A stretch of DNA of 64,000 nucleotides, from UHGV virus genome UHGV-0131811. One strand, written 5' to 3'. Within the stretch, counting starts at the first letter, position 1. Each line of letters opens with the position of its first letter. This document shows, piece by piece, positions 4,561 through 63,691 of this stretch. The translations under genes were made by a program, and so were the position numbers. The notes under the pieces are model-generated. The model did no database searches. It was not told where the DNA came from and was given only the letters and a program-made list of their open reading frames with translations. The DNA comes from a virus.

Positions 4561-5361
4561 TTAGTGCAGTTGCTCAGCAGACTCTTTTTCAGCCATAGCT
4601 GAGATTTGCTTCACAAAATCATCACCGAAGTTAATGCGTAGTTTCTCTTCAATGATTGAAGCACCGATGTTCACCAAAACATCATTGATTGCTTGCATAC
4701 TAACGCCACCAGTCATCTCTTCAATGAACTCAATACTTACACCCATCATCTGTGAAAGTTGGATTAGTGCAACGATATTCATCATCGTAGAGATAGCTGG
4801 AATCATCAGTGCAACTTTCACCTGAAGAGGTTCTATATCAGCTACAGAGTCATTTTCAACAGCTTCTTCCAAAGACTCTTTAGTTTGCTGGATAATTTCT
4901 TTGATTCGTGGGCTTAACTCTTCTACGCCCCAATCAAGTTTTTCATATCGTGAAAGTTTCTCTTCCATGCGCTTCTCAAGAACTGCCATAACAGCACTTG
5001 TTGATGAGATTAGTGTGTCAATAAGGAAATCAGTATCCTTAGTCAGCAATAGTTCCTTTTCTTCATCTGACATCCTGATATAGTCATTCTTTTGCATTTC
5101 ATAAAAAATGAACTCTGCAAGCGCATCAACACCGACTGCAATAGATGCAAGGGCAAGTGTAGTATCTGACAACATCATATTAACCTGCTCTGCAAAAGCA
5201 CCGTTATCAGTTTTATCTTCAGGCAAGTTATAGCTTTTTGGCATAAACTGTTCTGTATAGTTATTTCCACGAAGAATCATAGCCATGCTTTCTACAGCAT
5301 TGATTAAAAATGCTTCATCAATACCTTTTTCTTTAAGCATTTGGTCTACAGTAGTATTCAT
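4561..5361 (-). CDS. Hypothetical protein
   Basis: 266 aa ORF in replication cluster; no motif recognised. Confidence 0.45.
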   Translation of the reverse strand: MNTTVDQMLKEKGIDEAFLINAVESMAMILRGNNYTEQFMPKSYNLPEDKTDNGAFAEQVNMMLSDTTLALASIAVGVDALAEFIFYEMQKNDYIRMSDEEKELLLTKDTDFLIDTLISSTSAVMAVLEKRMEEKLSRYEKLDWGVEELSPRIKEIIQQTKESLEEAVENDSVADIEPLQVKVALMIPAISTMMNIVALIQLSQMMGVSIEFIEEMTGGVSMQAINDVLVNIGASIIEEKLRINFGDDFVKQISAMAEKESAEQLH

Positions 5362-5362
5362 A

Positions 5363-5785
5363 TTATTTCTCTCTCAGTTGGTTAAGTTTCTTTCTAGAGC
5401 ATTTTAAGTTTTCAGATGAAGAAAAGTCAAGTGTCTTTTCAGAACGTGGATAGTAATGCCTGTCCCAAGAAGTTTCAACATCGTTAATCAGTGATGCTAG
5501 ATTACACAGGTCTGTACCACTTTGCAACCTCTTTTTAAGAGAATCTAGTAAAGCAACTGTATCTTTAGCTTTACGTCTAGCTATAGCAACATCTTTCATG
5601 TGCTCGAACACAGAGCATTTTAAGTCATCTTCATAGTCTTCTGATAACTCTATTTCATGTTGTATATCAACCATTCTCCTGTGATGGTGAGCATATTCCC
5701 GTTGAGCAGCAATGTCAAGTTCTTCCAACTTCTGCAAAGCTCTAACAAAGTCAGCTATGTCTGGGTGAACAAACATTTTCTGCAT
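5363..5785 (-). CDS. Hypothetical protein
   Basis: 140 aa ORF, abuts downstream gene. Confidence 0.4.
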   Translation of the reverse strand: MQKMFVHPDIADFVRALQKLEELDIAAQREYAHHHRRMVDIQHEIELSEDYEDDLKCSVFEHMKDVAIARRKAKDTVALLDSLKKRLQSGTDLCNLASLINDVETSWDRHYYPRSEKTLDFSSSENLKCSRKKLNQLREK

Positions 5786-5789
5786 GTAA

Positions 5790-6010
5790 GCCTCTTTTAA
5801 GTAACTATTAAGTTTTAATCTTTTATCTTAACGTATTCTATACGTTATACTTTAAAGCTTTTTAAAAGCTATTAAATAATCTTTTAAGAGCTTTAAAGTA
5901 TCTGTATAGTTAAACTGTTAAGTAACCTTTTAAGTAAAAACCCACTTCGCAAAGATTAACACCTTGTCAAGTACATTGTCAACTTGCTTTTTATAATTTT
6001 TTGCAGTAAT
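5790..6010. promoter_or_regulatory. Divergent intergenic control region with CTTTTAAG repeats and a TTGTCAAGTACATTGTCAAC motif
   Basis: Lies between diverging gene sets; several CTTTTAAG copies; TTGTCAAGTACATTGTCAAC...TATAAT at 5960-5990; near-identical motif recurs at 49190-49215. Confidence 0.45.
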
Positions 6011-6042
6011 GTATGAGGTTAATGATTTTAGAGGGAGTAAAA

Positions 6043-8742
6043 ATGGAAAACGTAGATTTTAAAAACTTACATTTAGTTGGTGATACAGAAACTGATGGTT
6101 TACTCCTTGAGTTCACTAAAGTTCACGTAATGGCTTTCGCAGACTACAAATCTGACGACGAAGAACCACCAGTATGGGTCTTTACTGATGAGCCTATTCT
6201 CGGTCACAAGTACACTAAGTACATCAAGGGTGGATTACGTGAAGGTATTGAGTTTGCGTTGAAGGCAAAACGACTTTGTATCCATAATGGTCTCGGTTAT
6301 GACTGGTGGGTTTTCAATCACATTGCACCGGATTTATGGAACTTTGATAACCCAAAATGTAAGCCGTGGAGTAATTTCTTTCAGGACTCTCTTATCCAGT
6401 CTCGTGTTCAGTGGATGGATAGACCAACTCCAAAGGGTTATAAAGGTGCTCATGGTTTGGCTGCATGGGGTGCTCGTGTTGGTGTTCGTAAGCCAGAGAT
6501 TGAACATTGGGGTGTGTGGAATGCAGAAATCTTCACTCGTGTTGTAGAAGATATCCGTATTAACGCCAAAACTAAACGGGCACTTGATAACGAGTTTCTC
6601 AAGCTTAAGAAGTGTGGTATAGACACTTATGAAACCTACATGCGAGCTAAAGAAACATCTTTCTGGATGAGTCAACAGGCTATCAATGGTTGGAAAGCTG
6701 ATAAAGAGCTTATGGAGTTCCATGTAAAGGAGCTTGACAAATTGACTAATGAACTTGCTTCAGAGGTTGAACCACATCTACCTCCAACTATTAAGACCAA
6801 AGGTAAAGTCACTGGAGAAGAGTTTGCAAAAGCTTGGAATGAGTATGTTGAAACATTCGGTCATGCAGATGGACTGAAGAGAATTACCAAGTACCCTAAA
6901 ACAAAGTATCGTCAGCAGGTACGTAACGGTGAGATGCAGACTTATGAAATCAAACCATTTGGTAAGCCAACTACAAAGATTTTTAACATTGAAAAGAGAA
7001 ATTGCTATACACCAACCAACTCTGTAACTGGTGAAGAGTACAAGGAAGGCTTTGTAGCAATGAAGGATGCTCGTGCAATTTGCAATGAGTTGAATGCAAA
7101 GATTGGTAAGAAATGCAAAGACTGGAAGCCAGTAAAAACAGTCAAAACTGTGAAGTACTATAACAGCCACGTTGTTAACCACTTTGAACTTGAGTCAAGT
7201 CGCTACACAGGATTGATTGATGCACCATATACACCAATTGAGTTTGAAGTTTCTCGTATGACTCAGGTAGCAGTTGTAAAAGACTACTTGAAATCAGTTG
7301 GTTGGATTCCAGATGACTGGAACTACAAGAAAGACTCAGACGGTCGCCCTGTCAAAGTTTGTCGTTTCAAAGACAATAAAAAGATGATTACAAAACATCC
7401 TAAGTGGCAGGAGATGGTAGAACGGTGTGGATTGAGTTATGTCGAGCATGAAGGCGTCCAGTACATCGAGCATAACTGGTCTGTGAAGAAGTACACAGAT
7501 TTGCTTGAACCTTGCTTAATCCGTACTTCACCAAAACTTACGGAATCATCTTATGATACGATTGAAGGTGAGCTTGGACAGAAGATTGCTAAGTACTATA
7601 CTTTGATGCACAGACGCAGAACTATTGAGAACTCAAAGGATGATGAAAAAGGTTGGTTGAACCAGATTCGTCCTGATGGTCGCCTTAGTGCTGGCGCAAT
7701 GGTGTTTGGTACTTCAACTGGACGTATGACACAATATGGTATTGTAAACGTACCGTCTGGTGCTGCTGTCTATGGGGAACCAATGAGGGCAGTGTGGATT
7801 TGCGAGGAAGGTACTAACGTTGTCTCTGTAGATATGAACTCAGCCCAGCTAGTTCTTCTTTGTAACTTTATGGGTGATAAAGAGTTCACCAAAGCGGTAA
7901 CGCAAGGTAAAGAAGAGATTGAGTTTATTCGTCAAGAAGATGGACGCTATTACTGCAAACATTTTGATGAGTACCTCAACCCAGAGATTGATAAGTACCT
8001 TCGCTATGACTCTGAGAATGACCTGTACGTTGTCTATTCAGGGACTGATGCACATACACTGAACAGTATTTACTTTAGCTTGAATGATGAGCAGGACATC
8101 TTGACTTGTCGAGCTACTCAGGATGAGAATCTTCTTCATGAGATTAGTAAAGGTCGTAAGAAAGCTAAGAATGGTATCTATGCACTGCTGTTCGGTGCAG
8201 GGGATGAGAAGTTTGCTAAGACGATTAAAGCTGCAACTACTCAGGAAGGTGCACTGACTAAACAAACTTACTTTATTCGTTTGCCTAAAATTAAGAAGCT
8301 ACTAGATGACTTGGAAGCTGACTACAAAGCAACTAAAAAGGCACTTGAAGAGGTGTTTGGTAAGACTGCTGCAATCTCTAAAGGGGGTTTTGTAAAGGTT
8401 GCTGGAGCTTGGTTGTGGTGTAAATCTCCACATAAGTTATTGAATTATTTGCTCATGGGTTCAGAGGCTCAGATTCAAAATGAGGCAATTAACCTTGCTT
8501 GTAGAAGAGCATGTGAAGAAGGATTGACAAAATTAAATGGACGAAAACCAGCAATTGGTGCTAGGCTTTTGCTGGCATACCACGATGAAAACAGTTGGGA
8601 ATGCCCAGAAAGTATGACTCAAGAAGTTAAAGCCATAACTGACTGGATGTATGGTCAGGCATCTAAGAATTTAGGTTTGAAGAGTGAGACGCTTGTAACT
8701 GGCACAGGTAAGGTTGGTAAGAGCTGGTTGGAAGTACATTGA
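6043..8742 (+). CDS. DNA polymerase, family A (Pol I-like) with 3'-5' exonuclease domain
   Basis: Exo I motif DTETDGL; motif A VSVDMNSAQL; motif B RKKAKNGIYALLFGAG; motif C AYHDEN. Start moved to ATG 6043 behind RBS AGGGAG; track start is 6013. Confidence 0.85.
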   Translation: MENVDFKNLHLVGDTETDGLLLEFTKVHVMAFADYKSDDEEPPVWVFTDEPILGHKYTKYIKGGLREGIEFALKAKRLCIHNGLGYDWWVFNHIAPDLWNFDNPKCKPWSNFFQDSLIQSRVQWMDRPTPKGYKGAHGLAAWGARVGVRKPEIEHWGVWNAEIFTRVVEDIRINAKTKRALDNEFLKLKKCGIDTYETYMRAKETSFWMSQQAINGWKADKELMEFHVKELDKLTNELASEVEPHLPPTIKTKGKVTGEEFAKAWNEYVETFGHADGLKRITKYPKTKYRQQVRNGEMQTYEIKPFGKPTTKIFNIEKRNCYTPTNSVTGEEYKEGFVAMKDARAICNELNAKIGKKCKDWKPVKTVKTVKYYNSHVVNHFELESSRYTGLIDAPYTPIEFEVSRMTQVAVVKDYLKSVGWIPDDWNYKKDSDGRPVKVCRFKDNKKMITKHPKWQEMVERCGLSYVEHEGVQYIEHNWSVKKYTDLLEPCLIRTSPKLTESSYDTIEGELGQKIAKYYTLMHRRRTIENSKDDEKGWLNQIRPDGRLSAGAMVFGTSTGRMTQYGIVNVPSGAAVYGEPMRAVWICEEGTNVVSVDMNSAQLVLLCNFMGDKEFTKAVTQGKEEIEFIRQEDGRYYCKHFDEYLNPEIDKYLRYDSENDLYVVYSGTDAHTLNSIYFSLNDEQDILTCRATQDENLLHEISKGRKKAKNGIYALLFGAGDEKFAKTIKAATTQEGALTKQTYFIRLPKIKKLLDDLEADYKATKKALEEVFGKTAAISKGGFVKVAGAWLWCKSPHKLLNYLLMGSEAQIQNEAINLACRRACEEGLTKLNGRKPAIGARLLLAYHDENSWECPESMTQEVKAITDWMYGQASKNLGLKSETLVTGTGKVGKSWLEVH

Positions 8743-8752
8743 TGGTGTTGAA

Positions 8753-9265
8753 ATGATTACAGAAATTCGTCTTAAGGAGCTATTGGACTACGACCCCGAA
8801 ACAGGGGTCTTTACTTGGAAGTTTAGAGAAGGTAATGCAAACTTTAACTCTAGATTTGGAGGTAAGAGGGCTGGAAACTACAGAACAAATACTGATGGAC
8901 ACAAGTCAGTTCAGTTGCTGATTGATGGAAGGGGTTACCAAGCAAATCGTTTAGTTATCTTGTATATGGATGGATATCTACCTGATAAAACCTTACAGGT
9001 TGACCATAAGAATGGGGACGGTTGGGGCAATAGGTACTTGAATTTAAGGGTTTGTACAGCTTCACAAAACTCTTGCAATCGGTCAAGAGAGTCCCCATCT
9101 GGGTTGCCAAAAGGTGTACAGAAGATAAGTAAAAGGTTTCGAGCAATGATACGTTTACAAGGTAAAAACTATCATCTTGGTATGTTTGACACACCAGAAG
9201 AAGCCCATAAAGCTTACTGTGAAGCTGCTATTAAACTCCACGGAGAATTTGCAAAACTAAGTTGA
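8753..9265 (+). CDS. HNH homing endonuclease with AP2-type DNA-binding domain
   Basis: HNH core DHKNGDGWGNRYLNLRVCTASQN; C-terminal KISKRFRAMIRLQGKNYHLGMFDTPEEAHKAY is AP2-like. Track ORF (8714) overlaps polymerase 3' end; I use the internal Met. Confidence 0.65.
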   Translation: MITEIRLKELLDYDPETGVFTWKFREGNANFNSRFGGKRAGNYRTNTDGHKSVQLLIDGRGYQANRLVILYMDGYLPDKTLQVDHKNGDGWGNRYLNLRVCTASQNSCNRSRESPSGLPKGVQKISKRFRAMIRLQGKNYHLGMFDTPEEAHKAYCEAAIKLHGEFAKLS

Positions 9266-12004: not shown

Positions 12005-12340
12005 CACCAACATCACTTAAGAGTCTTCTAAGAGGGTTTTTAAGTAATGTGATGTTTGGTTTGGTGTGGTCAGGTAATGTGATGTCTGGTTTAGTGCGGT
12101 GATGTGCGGTCCGGTAAGGTCCGGTGCGGTAAAGTGCGGGTAGTTAGTCTCAGCTACATTAAAATGAGACTTACCTTTTTAAAAGGTCTTTAAGAGGGTC
12201 TTTTAATAAGGTGCTGTATGGTAAGGTGATGTCTGGTGTGGTAGGGTGAGGTTAAGTGAGGTGAGGTATGGGTGGATGGTAGTAGCCACGTTAAAAATCT
12301 ACCAAGTTTCTAAAGAGTCTTCTGTTGAGGGTTCTTTACA
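12005..12340 (+). repeat. GT-rich repeat block A (two units of conserved box + GT-rich hexamer run + hairpin box)
   Basis: Boxes CTTAAGAGTCTTCTAAGAGGGTTTTTAAG and AAAGGTCTTTAAGAGGGTCTTTTAATAAGGT each followed by ~70 nt of GGTNNG-type repeats, then GGGTAGTTAGTCTCAGCTACATTAAAAT / GGATGGTAGTAGCCACGTTAAAAATCTACC. No ORF of 60 aa or more. Confidence 0.6.
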
Positions 12341-12361
12341 AACAACTTAACAATCAACTAA

Positions 12362-12967
<606 letters not shown>

Positions 12968-12969
12968 TT

Positions 12970-13410
12970 ATGAATACAAAAGCATTAGCAGCAAAGTTTA
13001 GTTACGGTGACACTGTATCACACTCTGAGATGGATACCTTCTTAGGTATTGTGAAGCCAACTTATCAAGGTGACATTGTTAAGTACGAAGATGAAATGAA
13101 GGCTTATGCGCTTACACGTCTAAACCGACTTGAGAAATTTATTGAGAAGCTTCTTAAAGAAGAGAAGATTTATCTGGTTGCTTCAATGGGTGTTGGTTAT
13201 CGTGTGGTTGAGCCTAAACATCAAGCAACTATTGCAAAACGCAAAATGTCTGGTAAGATTGGTCGAGCTTTAAAGCAAGCCACTCAAGCAATTGAGAATG
13301 TGAACACTATGGCACTTAGCCATCAAGAACGTTCACGACTGATTGAACAGCAAAACCATTTAGCTGCTATGAAAGCTAACATTAACAAGCAACGCAGAAA
13401 ACCTTTCTAA
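12970..13410 (+). CDS. Hypothetical protein (second gene of repeat-flanked cassette)
   Basis: 146 aa, starts 3 nt after upstream stop; basic C-terminus. Confidence 0.5.
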   Translation: MNTKALAAKFSYGDTVSHSEMDTFLGIVKPTYQGDIVKYEDEMKAYALTRLNRLEKFIEKLLKEEKIYLVASMGVGYRVVEPKHQATIAKRKMSGKIGRALKQATQAIENVNTMALSHQERSRLIEQQNHLAAMKANINKQRRKPF

Positions 13411-13421
13411 GTTGACTAGGT

Positions 13422-13445
13422 AGCCTCTTCGGAGGCTCCTTTTTA
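13422..13445 (+). terminator. Rho-independent terminator-like hairpin
   Basis: AGCCTCTTCGGAGGCT followed by CCTTTTT immediately after stop of 12970..13410. Confidence 0.55.
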
Positions 13446-13735
13446 AAAGGTCTTTAAAGAGGGTCTTTTAATAAGGTAAGGCACGGTTATGTCAGGTATG
13501 GTACGGTACGGTTAGGTAAGGTGAGGCGGAGTAAGGTATGGGTAGTTAATCGGAGCTACATTAAAATTCGATTACATCACTTAAGAGTCTTTTAAGAGGG
13601 TTTTTAAGTGAGGTGTGGCACGGTAATGTTAGGTAGGGTCAGGTCAGGTCAGGTGAGGTAAGGTAAGGTGATGTATGGAAGGATGGCAGTAGCCTTATAA
13701 AAAATCTGCCAAATAAGCTATAAAATCTGTTGACA
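13437..13735 (+). repeat. GT-rich repeat block B (paralogue of block A)
   Basis: Same box order as 12005-12340, including (GGTCAG)3-GGTGAGGTAAGGTAAGG at 13640-13670; ends in TTGACA...TATTTT promoter-like sequence before 13803 gene. Confidence 0.6.
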
Positions 13736-13802
13736 AGTCAGGTGTTATAGCTTATTTTTATACTCAATGTAATACAAAATTTAATATAACTTTGAGGTCA
13801 TT

Positions 13803-14186
13803 ATGAAAAAGATTTTATTAGCCGCTGCAATGGTTATGGTAATGAACTTACCAGTCAATGCAACAGAACTTCCAAATGTGGACTTATCAGGTGTTCCAAA
13901 AGACACTTGCCAGATTGTTAAAGGTGTTGCTTTGACTAATGGTGAGTTACTTAAACCAATCTCTGAAGAGTCTTTAACAGAGATGACTGATAAGGTAACT
14001 GACTATCAGTATCGTGTTCTTGCAGAGTATTTCCTGCAATCTGCAAACATTAAAGAGAAGCACCATGATGATATTGATGTACAGGCGATGCTCAACCACC
14101 GTATCCAGTTTAAAGAAGATTTGATGCAAAAAGCTATGTATGGTGTTGAGTATTTCTTAGAAAACAGAAGCTGCACAGGTATTTGA
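13803..14186 (+). CDS. Putative secreted protein
   Basis: 127 aa; N-terminal signal peptide MKKILLAAAMVMVMNLPVNA. Confidence 0.5.
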   Translation: MKKILLAAAMVMVMNLPVNATELPNVDLSGVPKDTCQIVKGVALTNGELLKPISEESLTEMTDKVTDYQYRVLAEYFLQSANIKEKHHDDIDVQAMLNHRIQFKEDLMQKAMYGVEYFLENRSCTGI

Positions 14187-14187
14187 T

Positions 14188-14400
14188 ATGGCTCTTAAAA
14201 AGTTACATCCCAGAAGCGGTTATGGTAAGATAATTGACGATACAGACGGCTTTACAGTCTTTACAGTTATCTGTCAAGATGATTCACAGATTGAAAAGGT
14301 TCTTGATGATTATCTTAATGATAAACGTGAAAAGGTTAGGGCTACAAACATAGATTCATTGATTGACACTTCACGTAAACGGAAGAAGAAAGATGAATGA
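14188..14400 (+). CDS. Hypothetical protein
   Basis: 70 aa ORF starting 2 nt after upstream stop. Confidence 0.4.
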   Translation: MALKKLHPRSGYGKIIDDTDGFTVFTVICQDDSQIEKVLDDYLNDKREKVRATNIDSLIDTSRKRKKKDE

Positions 14401-14692
14401 GGTTTTTGACCCTTATGCTCCACAAGATGATTGGGAGGCTGATAGAGAGGCTGAAATGGAGAGTTATATTTGTCCAATGGATGTAGACGAAATGAGAGAC
14501 TTCGTTGCACATCGTTTTAAGAGAGAGATTAAATCCAGAGGTCTTTCTCAAGAACAAGTCGCTAAAATTTGTGGTATCTCTCAAGCTCGTGTATCCAACA
14601 TAATCCACCTCACTGGGAATGTCTCTCTTGAGTATATGTTGGAAGTGTGTGAAAAATTTGGTGTTAATTTCAATTTAAGGTTGGCAGATTAA
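14393..14692 (+). CDS. Putative helix-turn-helix transcriptional regulator
   Basis: ATGAATGA overlap with upstream gene; LSQEQVAKICGISQARVSNIIH is a typical HTH segment. Confidence 0.5.
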   Translation: MNEVFDPYAPQDDWEADREAEMESYICPMDVDEMRDFVAHRFKREIKSRGLSQEQVAKICGISQARVSNIIHLTGNVSLEYMLEVCEKFGVNFNLRLAD

Positions 14693-14693
14693 T

Positions 14694-15053
14694 ATGAAAC
14701 GTGAAAACATTATCCACTCTGAAAACTTCGCATTAGGCTTTTATGGTGCACCTACTCACCTTGAAAAGTACTACGGTGTAAAAATTCTTTCCAATCTCAT
14801 TATGGCTTACAAAGATGGTAAGATTAAGCACACTGAGAAGAAACGTGTCATGGGCTACATGGCTGTAGGTTCAGCAATCTCGAACATTAAGCTGGAAACC
14901 ACTAGCAGTCAGATTGTAAAAGACCACTTCATCAAAGAGCTTTACCATAATCTTGATGGTGTAGATGTTCAGGCTGTTTGGCTGGATGTTGACGGTCACA
15001 ACTATACAAGTTTCGTTTTCAAAAACGATGACATTAAGTGTTTGTTCCCTTAA
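14694..15053 (+). CDS. Hypothetical protein
   Basis: 119 aa ORF, tightly packed operon. Confidence 0.45.
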   Translation: MKRENIIHSENFALGFYGAPTHLEKYYGVKILSNLIMAYKDGKIKHTEKKRVMGYMAVGSAISNIKLETTSSQIVKDHFIKELYHNLDGVDVQAVWLDVDGHNYTSFVFKNDDIKCLFP

Positions 15054-15066
15054 TAGGTGATTAACC

Positions 15067-15582
15067 ATGATTGATATCTACTTACAAGATGCTCATGCAG
15101 ACTTCCTTAAAGTGATGCTTAAAAAGTTTATGGCTTCACAGGGTGAGAATGAAGCATCTTTTAAAATAGTTACATGTGGCGATGAAGCTGGTTTTGTTGA
15201 GATTGAACATGAAGGTACTGGAAAGATTGTTTGTAAACTACCTGACAGTATGTTCTCTAGTGCATTCTTAACAAAGACTAGCATAAATGTTAAGCTTGTC
15301 CCTCAGATTGAAACATACTCTGGTACAGATTACCCTAAAGGTTTCAAGTCGCTGATGAAGTACTTCTTAGATGACTTTGTGAGTAATCTTCTGAGGGAGG
15401 TAAAAGAAAGTCGTACAGTGTTGACTGTAGAGAACATTGGAGGAACTATCAGGGTTACTTCTGACTGTTTTGTGATGAGCCTCTTCGACTTCGTTCCTAA
15501 GAACTTTGATGGTATTCTGGATGAAGAAGATGACTGTGTAGACTTTATATTGGTTCTTGAACCAGTTTTTGAGGTTAAATAA
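15067..15582 (+). CDS. Hypothetical protein
   Basis: 171 aa ORF. Confidence 0.45.
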   Translation: MIDIYLQDAHADFLKVMLKKFMASQGENEASFKIVTCGDEAGFVEIEHEGTGKIVCKLPDSMFSSAFLTKTSINVKLVPQIETYSGTDYPKGFKSLMKYFLDDFVSNLLREVKESRTVLTVENIGGTIRVTSDCFVMSLFDFVPKNFDGILDEEDDCVDFILVLEPVFEVK

Positions 15583-15843
15583 ATGAAAATTGAACACTGC
15601 TATGAGCCTGACGGAACACCTATCCGATGTCCACATTGTGGGTGTACAGACTTGCAAGGCGAGGTAAGTGAAATAGTCAACGGTCATATCGCTGAAGAGA
15701 GTACAAGGTGTACAGAGTGTAATGAAATCATTGCTTTCTGGGCTTATGGTTCATACCAACCTACACCACACTTAATCTACCATAGCAATAAAGCTGTGAA
15801 GAATGTTATCAACTGGTTCATTAAGAAAGGGTTTACAAAATGA
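15583..15843 (+). CDS. Hypothetical zinc-ribbon protein
   Basis: 86 aa; CPHCGC...CTECNE four-Cys arrangement. Confidence 0.45.
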   Translation: MKIEHCYEPDGTPIRCPHCGCTDLQGEVSEIVNGHIAEESTRCTECNEIIAFWAYGSYQPTPHLIYHSNKAVKNVINWFIKKGFTK

Positions 15844-20550: not shown

Positions 20551-21726
20551 TTAAGCTGTTCTCTGCCACACATACACTACAAAAGATGGCTGCTCAACAC
20601 TGAATGCTTGACCACCACCAACAGAACCAGTTGTCCCTGAGTGTGTATGCTCAGAGCTAGAAACAGTAACAGTGCCTGTATGACTGTGCGAACCAATATT
20701 AACAGTGTGGCTGTGAGCACCAATTGCGACAGTATGACTATGAGCACCAGATGATGCAGTTGTACCTGAGAAGCTATGGGTGTGAGCACCAGCTAAATCA
20801 GTATACATAGCATTACCAACACCAGCATCAGCAGATGCAGTAATAGCATTTGTGCCACCCCTATCATTACCCCTCATAGGAACTCTATGGTTGTGGTTAC
20901 CAGCATTACTTGTTGTGCCACTAAACGTGTGAGTGTGAGCACCAGCACTATTAGTCGTTTTTGTACCGTAATCAAAAGTTGATGTGCTTTTTGAACCATA
21001 ATCAAAACTAGAGATAGATACACTTGCAGAGTGTGTATGACCACCACCTGTTAGGTAGATAGAGTGAGTATGTGCTGGTAAATTATTATTTGTTAATGCT
21101 ACAGTCTGAGAACCAAACATTGAACCAACAGGTCTAGAATCTGTATCATAACCAACTAGTGCCCTACCTTTAGAAACTAACTCCCAAGTGCCACCACAAA
21201 GCAAGTAAGTGGATGGGTTAGCAGAGTTAACAGACAGATGAATAGTCCCCACTGGATATGATGCTTGGATAGCTTTGTATAAGTTATTCACTGCTCTCGC
21301 TGTAGCATACTTATCAGCATCTTCATTGTACAGATTAGATGTTGTCCAGTTCTGAACATTACTTAAACCAACCTGTGCTTTCGTTGTATTGTGTGGGTTA
21401 CTTTTGTCGTCAATATGTTGCTGAATTAAGTTATTCACTTCCTCTGACGACATAATTTGTAGATTTGCTCTTGCCTCAGCAACATTCACAATGTCTGACA
21501 AGTTATTAGCTGCAACTAATTGAAGAGAGTTAATAACATTATCAAGACCCACTTGTGATTTAGTTACACCATGAGGATTATTCCTCAGAGATGCGTGAGG
21601 TGCTAACAACTGCTCAAGCGTACATCTTTTATCCTCAACACCTTGCTTAAGGTGGAAGATATCACTCAAATCAATTGGTAAGGCCGCTTGTGGCAAGGCA
21701 CTAATTTGAATTTCACCTACTGCCAT
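20551..21726 (-). CDS. Tail fiber protein (His-box type)
   Basis: 391 aa; C-terminal half has repeated GxHxH boxes (AHTHSIYLTGGGHTHS, AHTHTFSG, NHNHR, AHTHSFSG, AHSHTV, SHSHTG) like the tail fiber repeat family. Confidence 0.6.
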   Translation of the reverse strand: MAVGEIQISALPQAALPIDLSDIFHLKQGVEDKRCTLEQLLAPHASLRNNPHGVTKSQVGLDNVINSLQLVAANNLSDIVNVAEARANLQIMSSEEVNNLIQQHIDDKSNPHNTTKAQVGLSNVQNWTTSNLYNEDADKYATARAVNNLYKAIQASYPVGTIHLSVNSANPSTYLLCGGTWELVSKGRALVGYDTDSRPVGSMFGSQTVALTNNNLPAHTHSIYLTGGGHTHSASVSISSFDYGSKSTSTFDYGTKTTNSAGAHTHTFSGTTSNAGNHNHRVPMRGNDRGGTNAITASADAGVGNAMYTDLAGAHTHSFSGTTASSGAHSHTVAIGAHSHTVNIGSHSHTGTVTVSSSEHTHSGTTGSVGGGQAFSVEQPSFVVYVWQRTA

Positions 21727-37415: not shown

Positions 37416-37915
37416 TAATTAAACCTTACTTTTTGTTTAAGGACTGTTGAATGGTTACCAGATTCATCTACCACATTTACAATCATATCATATACTTTAC
37501 CTTTGACAAGTACTTTGTAATCATTTTGTGAAAAAATGTATTCAAGTCTGTTTGTTTCTTTATTAACTGTCATTGGAGATTGAAATGCAGTGTCGAGGGT
37601 AATGAAAGCGGCTTCAATGCTATTAACATTGATACGTTTATTCTCGCAGTTATATAACTTTACACCCAAAAGGCATGAACTGTCAAATGGAATTTTAACA
37701 ATTTCACTACAATTTCCTGAAATAAACGGTTTCCCACTCATTGGAGCATCAAGTAACCTGCAAATAGTGAAAACGTCAGAGGTTTCACCATCACTTACAT
37801 AACCTGAAAGGCTGACCCTTGAGCCAACCTCTACAGATAATTTGTCAGTGATAATAAGAACACCTCTATACGAATGCACTCGTGTAGCATTTGAAATAGA
37901 GATAACTTCAGCCAT
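37415..37915 (-). CDS. Hypothetical head protein
   Basis: 166 aa; by position. Confidence 0.35.
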   Translation of the reverse strand: MAEVISISNATRVHSYRGVLIITDKLSVEVGSRVSLSGYVSDGETSDVFTICRLLDAPMSGKPFISGNCSEIVKIPFDSSCLLGVKLYNCENKRINVNSIEAAFITLDTAFQSPMTVNKETNRLEYIFSQNDYKVLVKGKVYDMIVNVVDESGNHSTVLKQKVRFN

Positions 37916-57235: not shown

Positions 57236-57245
57236 AATATCTTAA

Positions 57246-57275
57246 GAGCCTCCTTAATCGGGGGCTTTTTAATTT
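57246..57275 (+). terminator. Terminator-like hairpin after last plus-strand gene
   Basis: AGCCTCCTTAATCGGGGGCT followed by TTTTTAATTTTTAT. Confidence 0.5.
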
Positions 57276-57299
57276 TTATAAAATTTTATCGGTTGTCCC

Positions 57300-58760
57300 A
57301 ACCTCTGGGTCACCATCATATGTGAACAAAATATCTATCCTTCTTAACAACCTTCTTAATCTTACTCTCTATATAGTTATATAGTACTATATAGTATCTT
57401 AGTAACTATCTAGTGGTCTTAATAGTCCCTCTGTATAACCCTTCTAACAAGCCCTCTAACAAGTCTTCTTAACAACCTATACAATCACCTTAACCATCTC
57501 TCTATACCCTCTTAGAAGCTCCTATACACCTCTTAATCTCTATGTCAGCTATGATACCCTCTATAGGTGTTCACTAGGTATTACTAAGCCTCTATATAGA
57601 CTGTTTTAACAAACTTAACAGGAATATCTTTACAGACCTTATCTCACAAGGTCTAACACGGTACTAACAAGGTATCTTATAAGCCTGTTTCTGCCTGTAT
57701 TTTTAAAAGGCTGTATAGGTAATTATTCAGAATCTTAAAATTTTTATAAAATAGGACTATCAAGTCATTTTTTAGGGTCTTTGAAGGAACTGAAAAATAT
57801 CTGTAGAAGATGTATATCTGCTTGGTAGCCCTTAACAGCTCCCTTACAAGTACTTTGCAAAATCTTAAAATATCATTAACAATCTCTTAACAACTCTCTC
57901 AAGTTCTTAACATCTCTTCAGAGGTCTTAACAGATTCTTAACAGAACTAACAAGGTTGTAACAAGTTCTTAACAGTTGATACATAGGCTTTACAGAATCT
58001 TAACAGATGACTAACAAGAGCTAACAAGTTAATTTTAAAGGGTTATTTTGTTAAGATAATTAACAAGTTTCTAACAAGTGTTTAATCTTTTTAACAAGCT
58101 ATTAACATGGTCACTATCTCTTTTCTTATCGTTCCCTTTACTTCTTAGTGATTCCTTAAACATACCTCTTAAAAGCTCTCTATAGCCCCTTATAAGTTCT
58201 TTTAAGCCTCTTCCTAGTATTTACCCCTCAACTGTATGGATAGCTCTTTATAGGGCTTTACAGGAGCTTTTAAGGCTATGTCAAAGACTCTTACAAGGCT
58301 TTTACGTGGTCTTAACAGAGATTTAACAAGGGGCTAACAAGTCTCTAACAAGCATAACTATGTAGGGATTGTTAAGAAATTGTTAAGAAAATGTTAAGGG
58401 GGCTAGCATTTACGTAGCTTTTAAGCTATCTATCACGTAACTTTATAGCCCCTATAACATACTTTTTAGTGACTATCAAGGGATTGTTTAGATATTCACA
58501 AGATACTAGCCAGCTTATAAGCTTGTACCCTTATAAGATTCTTCTAAGGCTCTGGGAAGCTCTATAAAGGGCTTTTTAGAGTGGGTTAATATGATTGCTT
58601 AAGTTAGGTTGATAAGGCTGTTATAGAGCGTTATAGAGCGTTTTAATGGTTGCCCTTCCCTTTCGGGTTATGGGCTTATATTTAAGTTGATTTGATAAAA
58701 GGCTATAGAGTAGACTATAGAGTTATTGCTTTTAAGGTATGGGATAGATTCTAGGAAGGA
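57300..58760. repeat. Iteron-like array: about 25 copies of (C/T)TAACA(A/G)G with AT-rich TATATAGT repeats and other short direct repeats
   Basis: AT-rich TATATAGTTATATAGTACTATATAGTA at 57390-57420; TAACAAG/TAACAG copies clustered 57450-58360; GTTATAGAGCG x2 at 58617-58638; TTGTTAAGAAA x2 at 58368-58390. No ORF of 60 aa or more on either strand. Confidence 0.6.
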
Positions 58761-58859
58761 AAGGAAAGAGATTGTATAGAGTTTCTTTATAGACGTAAAA
58801 AAGCCCCTATGAGAAGGAGCTTTTAAGGTATCTGGGGCTATTTAGCCCCGTTGCGTCGA

Positions 58860-60034: not shown

Positions 60035-60234
60035 TTTTGAATCTCCAGTTTAGGAAAGCATTATTGCTTGAGATAAACTATAAAGTTTTTGGAAGATGAT
60101 TGCAAGCAATTTTTTAAGTTTATCTATAAAGAATCTTTTAAGTGAATCCCTTTTAGATAAACCCCCTCGAACAAATGTACTATTGTCAAGGGGTATTGTC
60201 AACACTTTTTTAAAAGTTTTTTATAAGTTATTGA

Positions 60235-63604: not shown

Positions 63605-63691
63605 TTTTGAATCTCCAGTTTAGGATTAGTGGTAAAGCTCTTTATCTGGGGCTTAAGGTATCAACTTTTAAGCCCCTTGTAAAGTACTTTA
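63605..63691 (-). promoter_or_regulatory. Conserved 5' leader, class B
   Basis: Same hairpin and spacer as 61510-61602. Confidence 0.55.

Follow-up and report, generated by a model that had tools for sequence, protein, structure and literature searches.

Three predicted leftward sigma-70-type promoters with a doubled TTGACA and phased-box leaders in a Felix O1-like phage genome

The 64,000-nucleotide virus genome UHGV-0131811, referred to below in its entirety as the window, carries in its intergenic DNA a 20-nt motif that reads on the minus strand as two direct copies of TTGACA. Judged from the arrangement and conservation of the surrounding sequence, this motif is primarily the -35 hexamer and spacer of sigma-70-type promoters and not an operator. 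The best overall explanation, to which we assign a probability of about 0.6, is that the window contains three paralogous, strong promoters for the host RNA polymerase (sigma-70) with two extra control features, a second TTGACAA inside the spacer and phased boxes in the leader. As promoters the three sites are ordinary and already annotated (Felix O1 P41; AYO145A). No description of the conserved second -35-like copy, or of the phased CTTNNAAG arrays common to the three leaders and the terminal repeats, was found in the literature searched; the Felix O1 paper and the GenBank notes consulted mention neither the second copy nor the leader of phased boxes.

Bases 5000-9000 of the window are 96.5% identical to Escherichia phage vB_EcoM_Alf5 and matched 263 Ounavirinae records, which are Felix O1-like myoviruses and mostly Felixounavirus. 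By sequence similarity the window is assigned to a Felix O1-like myovirus of the genus Felixounavirus (Ounavirinae), in an orientation reversed relative to the Felix O1 record. An Rfam scan of the window returned 24 tRNA genes (~41.4-47.0 kb) as the only matches at or above the gathering score, with none in the leaders, repeat units or terminal region described below. The GC content is 39% for the genome, 35% for intergenic DNA and 25-29% for the leaders. The Felix O1 genome paper lists P41, TTGACA(N15)TATAGG at 21515-21541, as a promoter, and states that transcription timing and the passage through the many terminators are not known (PMC3185647); reverse transcription PCR timing data exist for Felix O1-like phage transcription (PMC3185647).

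Layout and conservation of the leftward promoters

The initial annotation had described a 22-nt motif shared by two intervals that separate diverging gene sets, and had suggested a genome-wide motif scan. The scan showed that the motif is non-random: exact matches to the 20-nt pattern TTGTCAAGTACWTTGTCAAC are located at 5964-5983 and 49184-49203, the second copy lying ~8 nt from the position first given for it (49192-49214), and with three or fewer mismatches the pattern was found three times in the window versus 0.01 expected in shuffles. The third of these matches (37503-37522) lies inside a coding region and is probably due to chance. The block common to regions 1 and 2 extends to 25 nt (ACACCTTGTCAAGTACWTTGTCAAC, 5959-5983 and 49179-49203, identical at 24 of 25 positions), and the reverse complement of the 20-mer is GTTGACAA-N5/6-TTGACAA. 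A degenerate third copy with a 13-bp period, missed by the initial annotation, is present at 60183-60203 (TTGTCAAggggtaTTGTCAAC). Both exact copies do separate diverging gene sets; the third is flanked by two minus-strand genes, and region 3 has no rightward gene. A scan of the complete genome of one relative found doubled sites at these three places only.

On the minus strand, all three copies show the same order of elements (Table 1): an A-rich AAAAAAG tract (in copy 1 AAAAAG, then CAAG), a perfect TTGACA, and a TAnnnT 17-18 bp further on. The -10 hexamers TAATCT (18 bp), TAGGCT (17 bp) and TACATT (17 bp) match TATAAT at 3-4 of 6 positions and are closely preceded by TG in the first two copies. 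All three promoters lie 130-180 bp upstream of minus-strand genes, with predicted minus-strand starts at ~5946, ~49167 and ~60167. P-left1 heads the replication and nucleotide-metabolism block (first gene leftward from 5785), P-left2 the tRNA and structural-gene block (from 49052), and P-left3 an early small-gene block (from 60034). Ten of the 14 intergenic TTGACA sites are followed by TAnnnT at 16-18 bp, versus 14 of 67 in coding DNA (Fisher p = 5e-4), and all ten are upstream of a gene on the same strand. Three of the four intergenic exceptions are the promoter-proximal second copies of the doubled motif.

Table 1. Positions of the promoter elements, leaders and associated features in the window, as predicted from the DNA sequence
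Feature	Position	Strand	Observations
-35 TTGACA of P-left1	5977..5982	-	Perfect consensus; TAATCT 18 bp downstream; invariant in 20 distinct relatives; promoter in AYO145A
Second TTGACAA in P-left1 spacer (~-23 to -17)	5964..5970	-	Without its own TAnnnT at 16-18 bp; TTGACA core invariant, 4 nt between the copies most variable
-10 TAATCT of P-left1, TGt before (extended -10-like)	5953..5958	-	Positions 1, 2 and 6 invariant, position 3 variable; same in AYO145A
UP-element-like A/T tract AAAAAATTATAAAAAGCAAG upstream of P-left1 -35	5984..6005	-	TTTTAAAAAAG-type tract also before other intergenic TTGACA sites
Leader 1, ~160 nt, 25% GC	5786..5946	-	Start ~5946 to ATG at 5785; 8 CTNNNNAG boxes vs 0.9, 3 of them CTTAAAAG in transcript sense
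-35 TTGACA of P-left2 (= Felix O1 P41)	49197..49202	-	Felix O1 21516-21521; matches published P41 (PMC3185647)
Second TTGACAA in P-left2 spacer	49184..49190	-	Invariant in 12 distinct sequences
-10 TAGGCT of P-left2, TG directly upstream	49174..49179	-	Relatives TAGGCT, TAGCCT, TAAGTT, TAGTGT; TAnnnT kept, TG invariant
Leader 2, ~115 nt, 29% GC	49053..49167	-	Two GATATC palindromes 12 bp apart; 6 boxes vs 0.8 in shuffles
-35 TTGACA of P-left3	60197..60202	-	TTGACA-N17-TACATT, 10/12 consensus positions; promoter in AYO145A
Second TTGACA(A) in P-left3 spacer	60183..60189	-	13-bp period; TTGACA core invariant in 10 distinct sequences
-10 TACATT of P-left3	60174..60179	-	Most relatives TGgTAACTT
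Leader 3, ~133 nt, 29% GC	60035..60167	-	CTAAAAGG, CTTAAAAG and CTTTATAG boxes; 3 generic boxes vs 0.5, weaker than leaders 1 and 2
Candidate P-right1 of the DNA polymerase operon	5984..6012	+	TTGCTT-N17-TAATGT; TTGCTT invariant, -10 TAnnGT kept in relatives; sequence only
Candidate P-right2	49228..49256	+	TTGACT-N17-TACCAT; promoter scan; invariant in relatives
Gene of 99-aa Cro/C1-type HTH protein, candidate regulator	14393..14692	+	Pfam HTH_3 E 5e-10; PHROG 1373 'transcriptional regulator'
Two of four paralogous repeat units	12010..12306	+	Initially given as 12010-12340; differ from leader boxes, share only CTT..AAG words
Other two repeat units	13437..13716	+	Initially given as 13437-13620; same paralogous unit family
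1.6-kb non-coding region without open reading frames	57236..58859	.	Convergent gene blocks either side; 56 CTNNNNAG boxes vs 7.1 +/- 2.6 in shuffles

In order to follow these elements in relatives, the three regions were taken from IMG/VR contigs with flanking proteins as anchors, so that the sampling was blind to the motif. The resulting alignments comprised 20, 12 and 10 distinct sequences for regions 1, 2 and 3, respectively, from Felixouna-, Moogle- and Suspvirus-like phages. In relatives of all three regions the -35 TTGACA(A) never varies, and the TG and the T-A-n-n-n-T are kept, while the inner -10 bases vary. The AYO145A GenBank record has sigma-70-like promoters annotated at all three doubled sites. 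Since layout, conservation and the Felix O1 and AYO145A annotation agree, the upstream repeat is identified as the -35 hexamer. At the homologous position, more distant Ounavirinae carry one TTGACA-N17/18-TAnnnT with boxes downstream; such homologues were found upstream of the DNA polymerase gene in Arno18, SE5 and Panisse, and upstream of the gene-41 homologue in Wc4-1.

Within the window, further candidate promoters with a single TTGACA (TTGACA-N17/18-TAnnnT) are located at 47074, 47165, 48668, 45611, 61893, 62757, 1159 (-) and 13730 (+). These single-TTGACA promoters are without boxes. Several have the TTTTAAAAAAG upstream tract, which is clearest at 47074, 47165 and 48668, and three are within or just upstream of the tRNA cluster. 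The 61893 and 62757 sites correspond to the 39-bp repeat noted in the Felix O1 paper.

The opposite strand of regions 1 and 2 carries candidate rightward promoters. The UP-like tract of P-left1 doubles, on the plus strand, as the -35 (TTGCTT, 5984-5989) and most of the spacer of P-right1, and the TACCAT -10 of P-right2 is also present in Pectobacterium phage Wc4-1. Measured from the leftward promoter, the doubled repeat always sits at the same place; measured from the rightward promoters, regions 1 and 2 disagree by ~24 bp, and a rightward gene is missing at copy 3. The doubling is therefore assigned to the leftward promoters, and the same ~24 bp discrepancy led us to reject the repeat as an upstream activator site for rightward transcription. 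TTGTCA was also considered as a plus-strand -35 and rejected, the sole match being in copy 2 (TTGTCA-N18-AATAGT), with none in copy 1 and no plus-strand gene at copy 3. A TATAAT 10 bp downstream on the plus strand of copy 1 is not conserved in relatives. A small open reading frame directly downstream of P-right2 (49302-49463, plus strand; 53 aa from ATG, 60 aa from a TTG at 49281) has a good Shine-Dalgarno sequence, AAAGGAG, and overlaps the start of the next gene; it is ORF84 in the original Felix O1 record and is absent from AYO145A.

The second TTGACAA and the candidate HTH regulator

At all three promoters the second copy is situated 12-13 bp downstream of the first, inside the promoter spacer. 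It was rejected as an independent -35 element, as no copy has a TAnnnT at 16-18 bp (AAGTGG, TACTTA and GGGGGT stand there). Its TTGACA core is invariant across the three genera, the final A of TTGACAA being lost in 1 of 20 region-1 relatives and in most region-3 relatives, while variation across the whole region is greatest in the 4-7 bases that separate the two copies. These inter-copy bases read GTACA, GTGCA, GTGTA, GCGCA, GTTAT or GTGAA in region 1 and AAGTAC, AAGGAC, TTCCTC, AGCCTC, AGGGGA or AATGAC in region 2. Even among very close Felixounavirus genomes the corresponding positions (5971-5975, 49191-49196 and 60190-60195) vary most within regions that are otherwise 99% conserved, with at least five variants in region 1, which may reflect relaxed constraint or diversifying change. 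By alignment, then, the conservation footprint is that expected for a sigma-70 promoter plus one extra protected block beyond what an ordinary spacer needs. The distant Ounavirinae have a single TTGACA in their homologous promoters, so the doubling is specific to one clade (Felixouna/Moogle/Susp).

The initial annotation had read the motifs as a shared operator for a regulator, possibly the helix-turn-helix (HTH) protein at 14393..14692. The motifs are real, conserved and common to two divergent control regions, but with the 20-mer being primarily a -35 and spacer, an operator role is possible for the second TTGACAA copy only. In favour of such a role, this copy overlaps the core promoter (~-23 to -17) and is invariant at positions where a plain spacer should drift. 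The Cro/C1-type gene itself is also real. A tblastn search with the HTH protein matched 261 records, all of Felixouna/Moogle/Susp type, plus two weak Zymomonas matches, and no homologue was found in Erwinia or Pectobacterium phages (tblastn, E<=1e-3). In Kolesnikvirus Panisse, a distant relative with single -35 hexamers, the HTH gene and a whole 4-kb module are absent from the syntenic site between the DNA ligase and DHFR genes. Pfam scans of ~40 neighbouring open reading frames of the window recognised no DNA-binding protein, sequence-specific or other, apart from the HTH protein.

Despite these points, we consider it unlikely that the doubled motif (TTGTCAA on the plus strand) is primarily a shared operator through which the HTH protein switches the divergent control regions on or off. 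The half-sites lack two-fold symmetry: they are direct repeats (TTGACAA-N5/6-TTGACAA) spaced 12-13 bp, and the usual targets of Cro/C1-type dimers are inverted repeats. Palindromic sequence is limited to the 9-mer CTTGACAAG around the second copy, which not all relatives retain. A -35 function explains the upstream copy completely, and the HTH operon's own promoter (13730) carries only one TTGACAAG. The HTH gene and the doubling share their distribution, but this is a single clade-level coincidence and hence weak evidence, because one evolutionary event would produce it and the whole 4-kb module is distributed in the same way. That module (12017-15843, ligase to DHFR) comprises the two gaps with the repeat units and eight small genes, one of which encodes the HTH regulator, and is replaced in Panisse (13523-15727) by a single 184-aa gene; by synteny it is clade-specific. 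Two other classes of binding site were rejected on their period, which is 12 bp here (13 in copy 3): OmpR/PhoB-type boxes (e.g. the pho box CTGTCAT-N4-CTGTCAT), which repeat every 10-11 bp and are placed 10 bp before a -10 element, and lambda CII-type boxes. The only such -10 would be the TATAAT beyond copy 1 mentioned above, which relatives do not conserve.

Returning to the promoter reading, the embedded TTGACAA could be a site at which a protein competes with, or re-docks, sigma region 4, and the phage HTH protein would be the only named candidate for it.

Phased boxes in the leaders and the terminal-repeat region

Each doubled promoter is followed by an AT-rich leader of 115-165 nt with quasi-palindromic CTTNNAAG-type boxes that begin at ~+2 to +14, are spaced 10-13 bp and are present in both orientations. 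Box counts were compared with shuffles, the generic form counted being CTNNNNAG with its centre rich in A/T. In the window CTTTTAAG is present 29 times (dinucleotide shuffles, 5.7 +/- 2.1) and is the commonest 8-mer of non-tRNA intergenic DNA, with 15 occurrences, 13 of them on the plus strand, versus ~2 expected from a second-order Markov model trained on the same AT-rich DNA. Only the spacing CTT-N2-AAG is enriched (29 vs 0.8), which led to the rejection of a broader CTT-Nk-AAG rule under which CTTGACAAG and CTTTGCGAAG would also fall. Box-to-box distances are dominated by 10, 11 and 12 bp with secondary peaks at 21-23 and 31-33 bp, approximately one helical turn.

These counts bear directly on whether the motifs are chance products of base composition, the outcome by which the initial annotation would have been refuted. 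Intergenic DNA is indeed AT-rich, yet composition does not explain CTTTTAAG, because the excess stands under a model of that very DNA. With the 20-mer, the terminal-region boxes (56 vs 7) and the leader 1 boxes (8 vs 0.9) also far above expectation, and with conservation across genera, a chance origin is practically negligible.

The five box intervals listed in the initial annotation do contain recurring, enriched boxes, but they belong to three different contexts: the leaders (5786-5950 and 49053-49170), the GGT-rich repeat units, and the terminal-repeat region. The last of these holds the physical genome ends, several related records starting or ending inside it, and comparison with Pr103Blw, which has an annotated, PhageTerm-determined direct terminal repeat (DTR) of 581 bp, places the DTR of the window at ~57820-58403. 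The box words here include CTTAACAG, CTAACAAG and CTTTTAAG, phased at ~10.5 bp, with runs of ~10 boxes over ~100 bp (57926-58030) and a strand bias of 9 to 0 for CTAACAAG and 7 to 1 for CTTAACAG. In Mooglevirus the terminal region keeps the box number (50-53). At 63640-63680 (minus strand), an CTTAAAAG lies within a GC-clamped stem-loop (GGGGCTTAaaag...CTTAAGCCCC) that is part of the Felix O1 57-bp repeat, a context unlike that of the leader boxes.

The GGT-rich context consists of four repeat units of ~135-165 nt, each with CTT..AAG boxes at the 5' end, 60-110 nt of GGTNN pentamer repeats, and a 7-bp hairpin. In the pentamer repeats G/GT is invariant every 5 nt, and Shine-Dalgarno-like AAGGTGA and GAGGT words are present. 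The hairpin stem differs in each copy yet remains complementary, around a conserved loop GCYACRTTAAAA, with no Rfam match. The units could be a small RNA, a protein or ribosome sponge, or an origin.

The leaders are strongly conserved. The 227-bp region 1 is at least 99% identical in 171 of 259 records, versus mostly 90-96% for the surrounding 4 kb, and the variation inside it falls in the spacers between boxes. Leader 2 is near-invariant across genera whose downstream protein is 80-85% identical, and in leader 3 conservation is limited to the first ~90 nt. Distant relatives also have boxes just after the promoter, at 3-4 per leader versus 0.3 expected, and the box consensus shifts by lineage, CTKAACAG being dominant in Pectobacterium phages, a sequence pattern that suggests a co-evolving trans-acting partner. 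Boxes are also present in Ounavirinae without a tblastn-detected HTH homologue (E<=1e-3); because they extend beyond the clade carrying the HTH gene, the boxes are unlikely to be operators of that protein.

That the cassettes exceed their flanking genes in near-identity across genera, and that each genome has three paralogous ones, could alternatively mean that the repeats are regulatory cassettes prone to mobility or recombination, comparable to the T4-type promoter-early stem-loop (PeSL) elements, and conserved through frequent homologous exchange at module borders. Other promoter and stem-loop repeats do occur among the small early genes (the Felix O1 39-bp and 57-bp repeats; 61893 and 62757). 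The three leaders, though, are not alignable with each other beyond the boxes, and the conservation is position-specific, with contact positions fixed and non-contact positions free, which argues for selection on function rather than homogenisation and makes mobile cassettes a rather remote explanation.

The low GC content of the leaders relative to the genome raises a further possibility. At the T4 origins ori(uvsY) and ori(34) and at T7 primary origins, a promoter transcript enters an easily unwound AT-rich segment and primes DNA synthesis. By analogy, the units of promoter and AT-rich leader might be replication origins of this type: copy 1 is adjacent to the genes for DNA polymerase and primase-helicase, the boxes recur in the manner of iterons, and the cumulative GC skew turns at ~6 kb and ~49-50 kb, where copies 1 and 2 are located. 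The skew turns coincide with changes of gene strand, though, and are therefore not independent, and no initiator protein or DnaA boxes were identified; an origin function is accordingly considered improbable.

A role of the boxes in RNA has a stronger case, although we still regard it as doubtful. The CUUAAAAG and CUUUUAAG words could pair into long imperfect hairpins in the 5' leader, and, at the same low likelihood, these hairpins would control mRNA processing (e.g. as RNase III substrates, as in the T7 early leader), mRNA stability or access to the Shine-Dalgarno sequence. Leaders 1, 2 and 3 fold better than shuffles (z = -4.4, -3.45 and -3.5, respectively; 0-1 of 200 shuffles as good), two pairs of a CTTAAC/GTTAAG helix have changed in a compensatory way between genera, the Shine-Dalgarno sequence of the first gene lies partly in the first box (CTTAAAAGAGGC), and the leaders are conserved nucleotide by nucleotide. 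Against this, covariation in leader 1 is no better than for the structure slid by +2 columns, and two copies of one box changing in parallel would explain the paired change just as well. The transcript strand does not consistently give the stronger fold; for leader 2 the complement does. The terminal-region boxes form phased arrays, mostly in one orientation, without hairpin logic, the distant leaders do not have the same pairing scheme, and the leaders gave no Rfam match. We favour a DNA-level array, with a role in RNA as a live rival.

Individual features of the leaders were compared with described elements. In leader 1, GCTCTTAAAAG resembles lambda nutL boxA and was rejected as a boxA (NusB/NusE; conserved core GCTCTT(T)A), as its GCTC part varies (AACT, ATCT, AATT, AAGT, ACCC, AGAC) and only CTTAAAAG of the boxA-like word is fixed in relatives. 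PmrA-type CTTAAT-N5-CTTAAT boxes were also considered, and most boxes do not fit them. Leader 1 has a central inverted repeat at 5832-5848 (AACGTAT-tct-ATACGTT) that reads TATGTAT...ATACATA in Moogle-type phages, with its symmetry kept; the G-to-A change in it also fits an alternative long-range pairing with CTTTATAG. Leader 2 also has a central inverted repeat, at 49097-49116 (AGATATC-cagaaa-GATATCT).

Together with the folding of the leaders noted above, several observations count against the explanation preferred here. A mapped transcription start for any Felix O1-like phage is absent from the searchable literature (transcription start sites, RNA-seq), and the PhageMaP paper on Bas63 yielded no promoter data. 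At copies 1 and 2 the -10 hexamer agrees with the consensus at only 3 of 6 positions, and a generic promoter scan called copy 3 and neither of the other two. Conservation in the terminal region does not favour the box positions over the spacers (79-80% vs 77-78%), only the density being kept. Finally, in Erwinia phage phiEa104 the boxes are upstream of the gene-proximal promoter, so that boxes are not universally in the leader.

The phiEa104 (Kolesnikvirus) segment analysed (300-445) has CTTAAAAG, CTTTAAAG and CTGTAAAG upstream of TTGACA-N16-TAGAAT, with a second TTGACA 6 nt past the -10, so that these words are arranged otherwise than in the window.

Possible function and comparison with known systems

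If the promoter reading is correct, the second TTGACAA and the boxes would be the control sites of one early-promoter cassette, and the phased boxes would together bind an oligomerising factor that recognises DNA by sequence and coats the terminal-repeat region as well. The result would be that, after the early phase, the phage turns three very strong promoters down or modifies the departing polymerase; we know of no polymerase-modifying genes in Ounavirinae. A more specific proposal, which goes well beyond the promoters themselves and is put forward as speculative and on balance improbable, is that Ounavirinae have a temporal switch whose cis-elements are the doubled -35 and the phased CTTNNAAG arrays, operated by a protein on the spacer TTGACAA and an oligomerising box-coating factor. 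Within this scheme, and no more probably, the spacer protein would mimic or reposition sigma region 4, and the factor would coat the first 100-160 bp of three key transcription units and the terminal repeats. Were it true, early shut-off, passage into the late genes and the handling of the genome ends would be tied to one DNA code.

Felix O1-like phages are the classic Salmonella typing phages, and relatives feature in recent therapy, biocontrol and gene-essentiality studies. The analysis gives exact positions for three strong host-type promoters, identifies the bases under selection, and sets out two features beyond the needs of a plain promoter, the invariant second TTGACAA and the phased box arrays that recur in the terminal repeats. 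Both are mutable targets for the study of early-to-late control and genome-end handling, and the doubled promoters are well-defined strong promoter parts.

The closest known counterparts are strong sigma-70 early promoters, such as those of T5 and T4 and Felix O1 P41 (which is copy 2 itself). These share the UP-like A tract, the TTGACA, the 17-18 bp spacer and the TAnnnT with TG, and likewise head early transcription units read by unmodified host polymerase. Unlike the T5 and T4 early promoters, the promoters described here have a conserved second TTGACAA in the spacer and a leader of 115-165 nt with phased boxes. The T4-type PeSL are also repeated cassettes of early promoter and hairpin in the intergenic DNA of a virulent myovirus; they are ~70 bp long and flank many small early open reading frames, whereas here three copies with much longer leaders head major transcription units.

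For the second TTGACAA, the nearest parallels are in phage lambda. The CII sites are TTGC-N6-TTGC around the -35, and the Q-binding element has an extra -35-like TTGACT at PR'. Both resemble the present motif in having direct repeats that begin with TTG at the -35, or an extra -35-like hexamer near the promoter, and by analogy such a hexamer could retain sigma region 4 or a protein in contact with it. The present repeats have a period of 12-13 bp instead of 10, neither a CII nor a Q homologue was identified, and no pause-inducing -10-like element or leader terminator was recognised.

For the boxes, P2 Cox, 186 Apl, lambda Xis and phi29 p6 are small oligomerising phage proteins that bind phased arrays, and DNA wraps around small-terminase rings. 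The arrays are alike in having 8-9 bp sites every ~10.5 bp over 50-100 bp or more, and helical phasing is likewise seen in the present boxes. The array described here is found both at promoters and at a DNA-processing site, the terminal repeats, and its boxes, putative binding sites, are quasi-palindromic and in both orientations in the leaders. A protein of the Cox, Apl, Xis or p6 kind was not identified; among the ~40 open reading frames scanned, the sole candidate is the HTH protein. Phages of the T7 group have arrays of short CCTAAAG-type repeats next to their terminal repeats, the function of which is itself not settled, and words around the T7 A1 early promoter (CTTAAAG, ACTTAAAAG) resemble the present boxes as well. 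The phage family and the word differ, and the likeness lies in A-rich words of 7-8 bp repeated every ~10-14 bp in the non-coding ends of a phage that packages DNA with a DTR.

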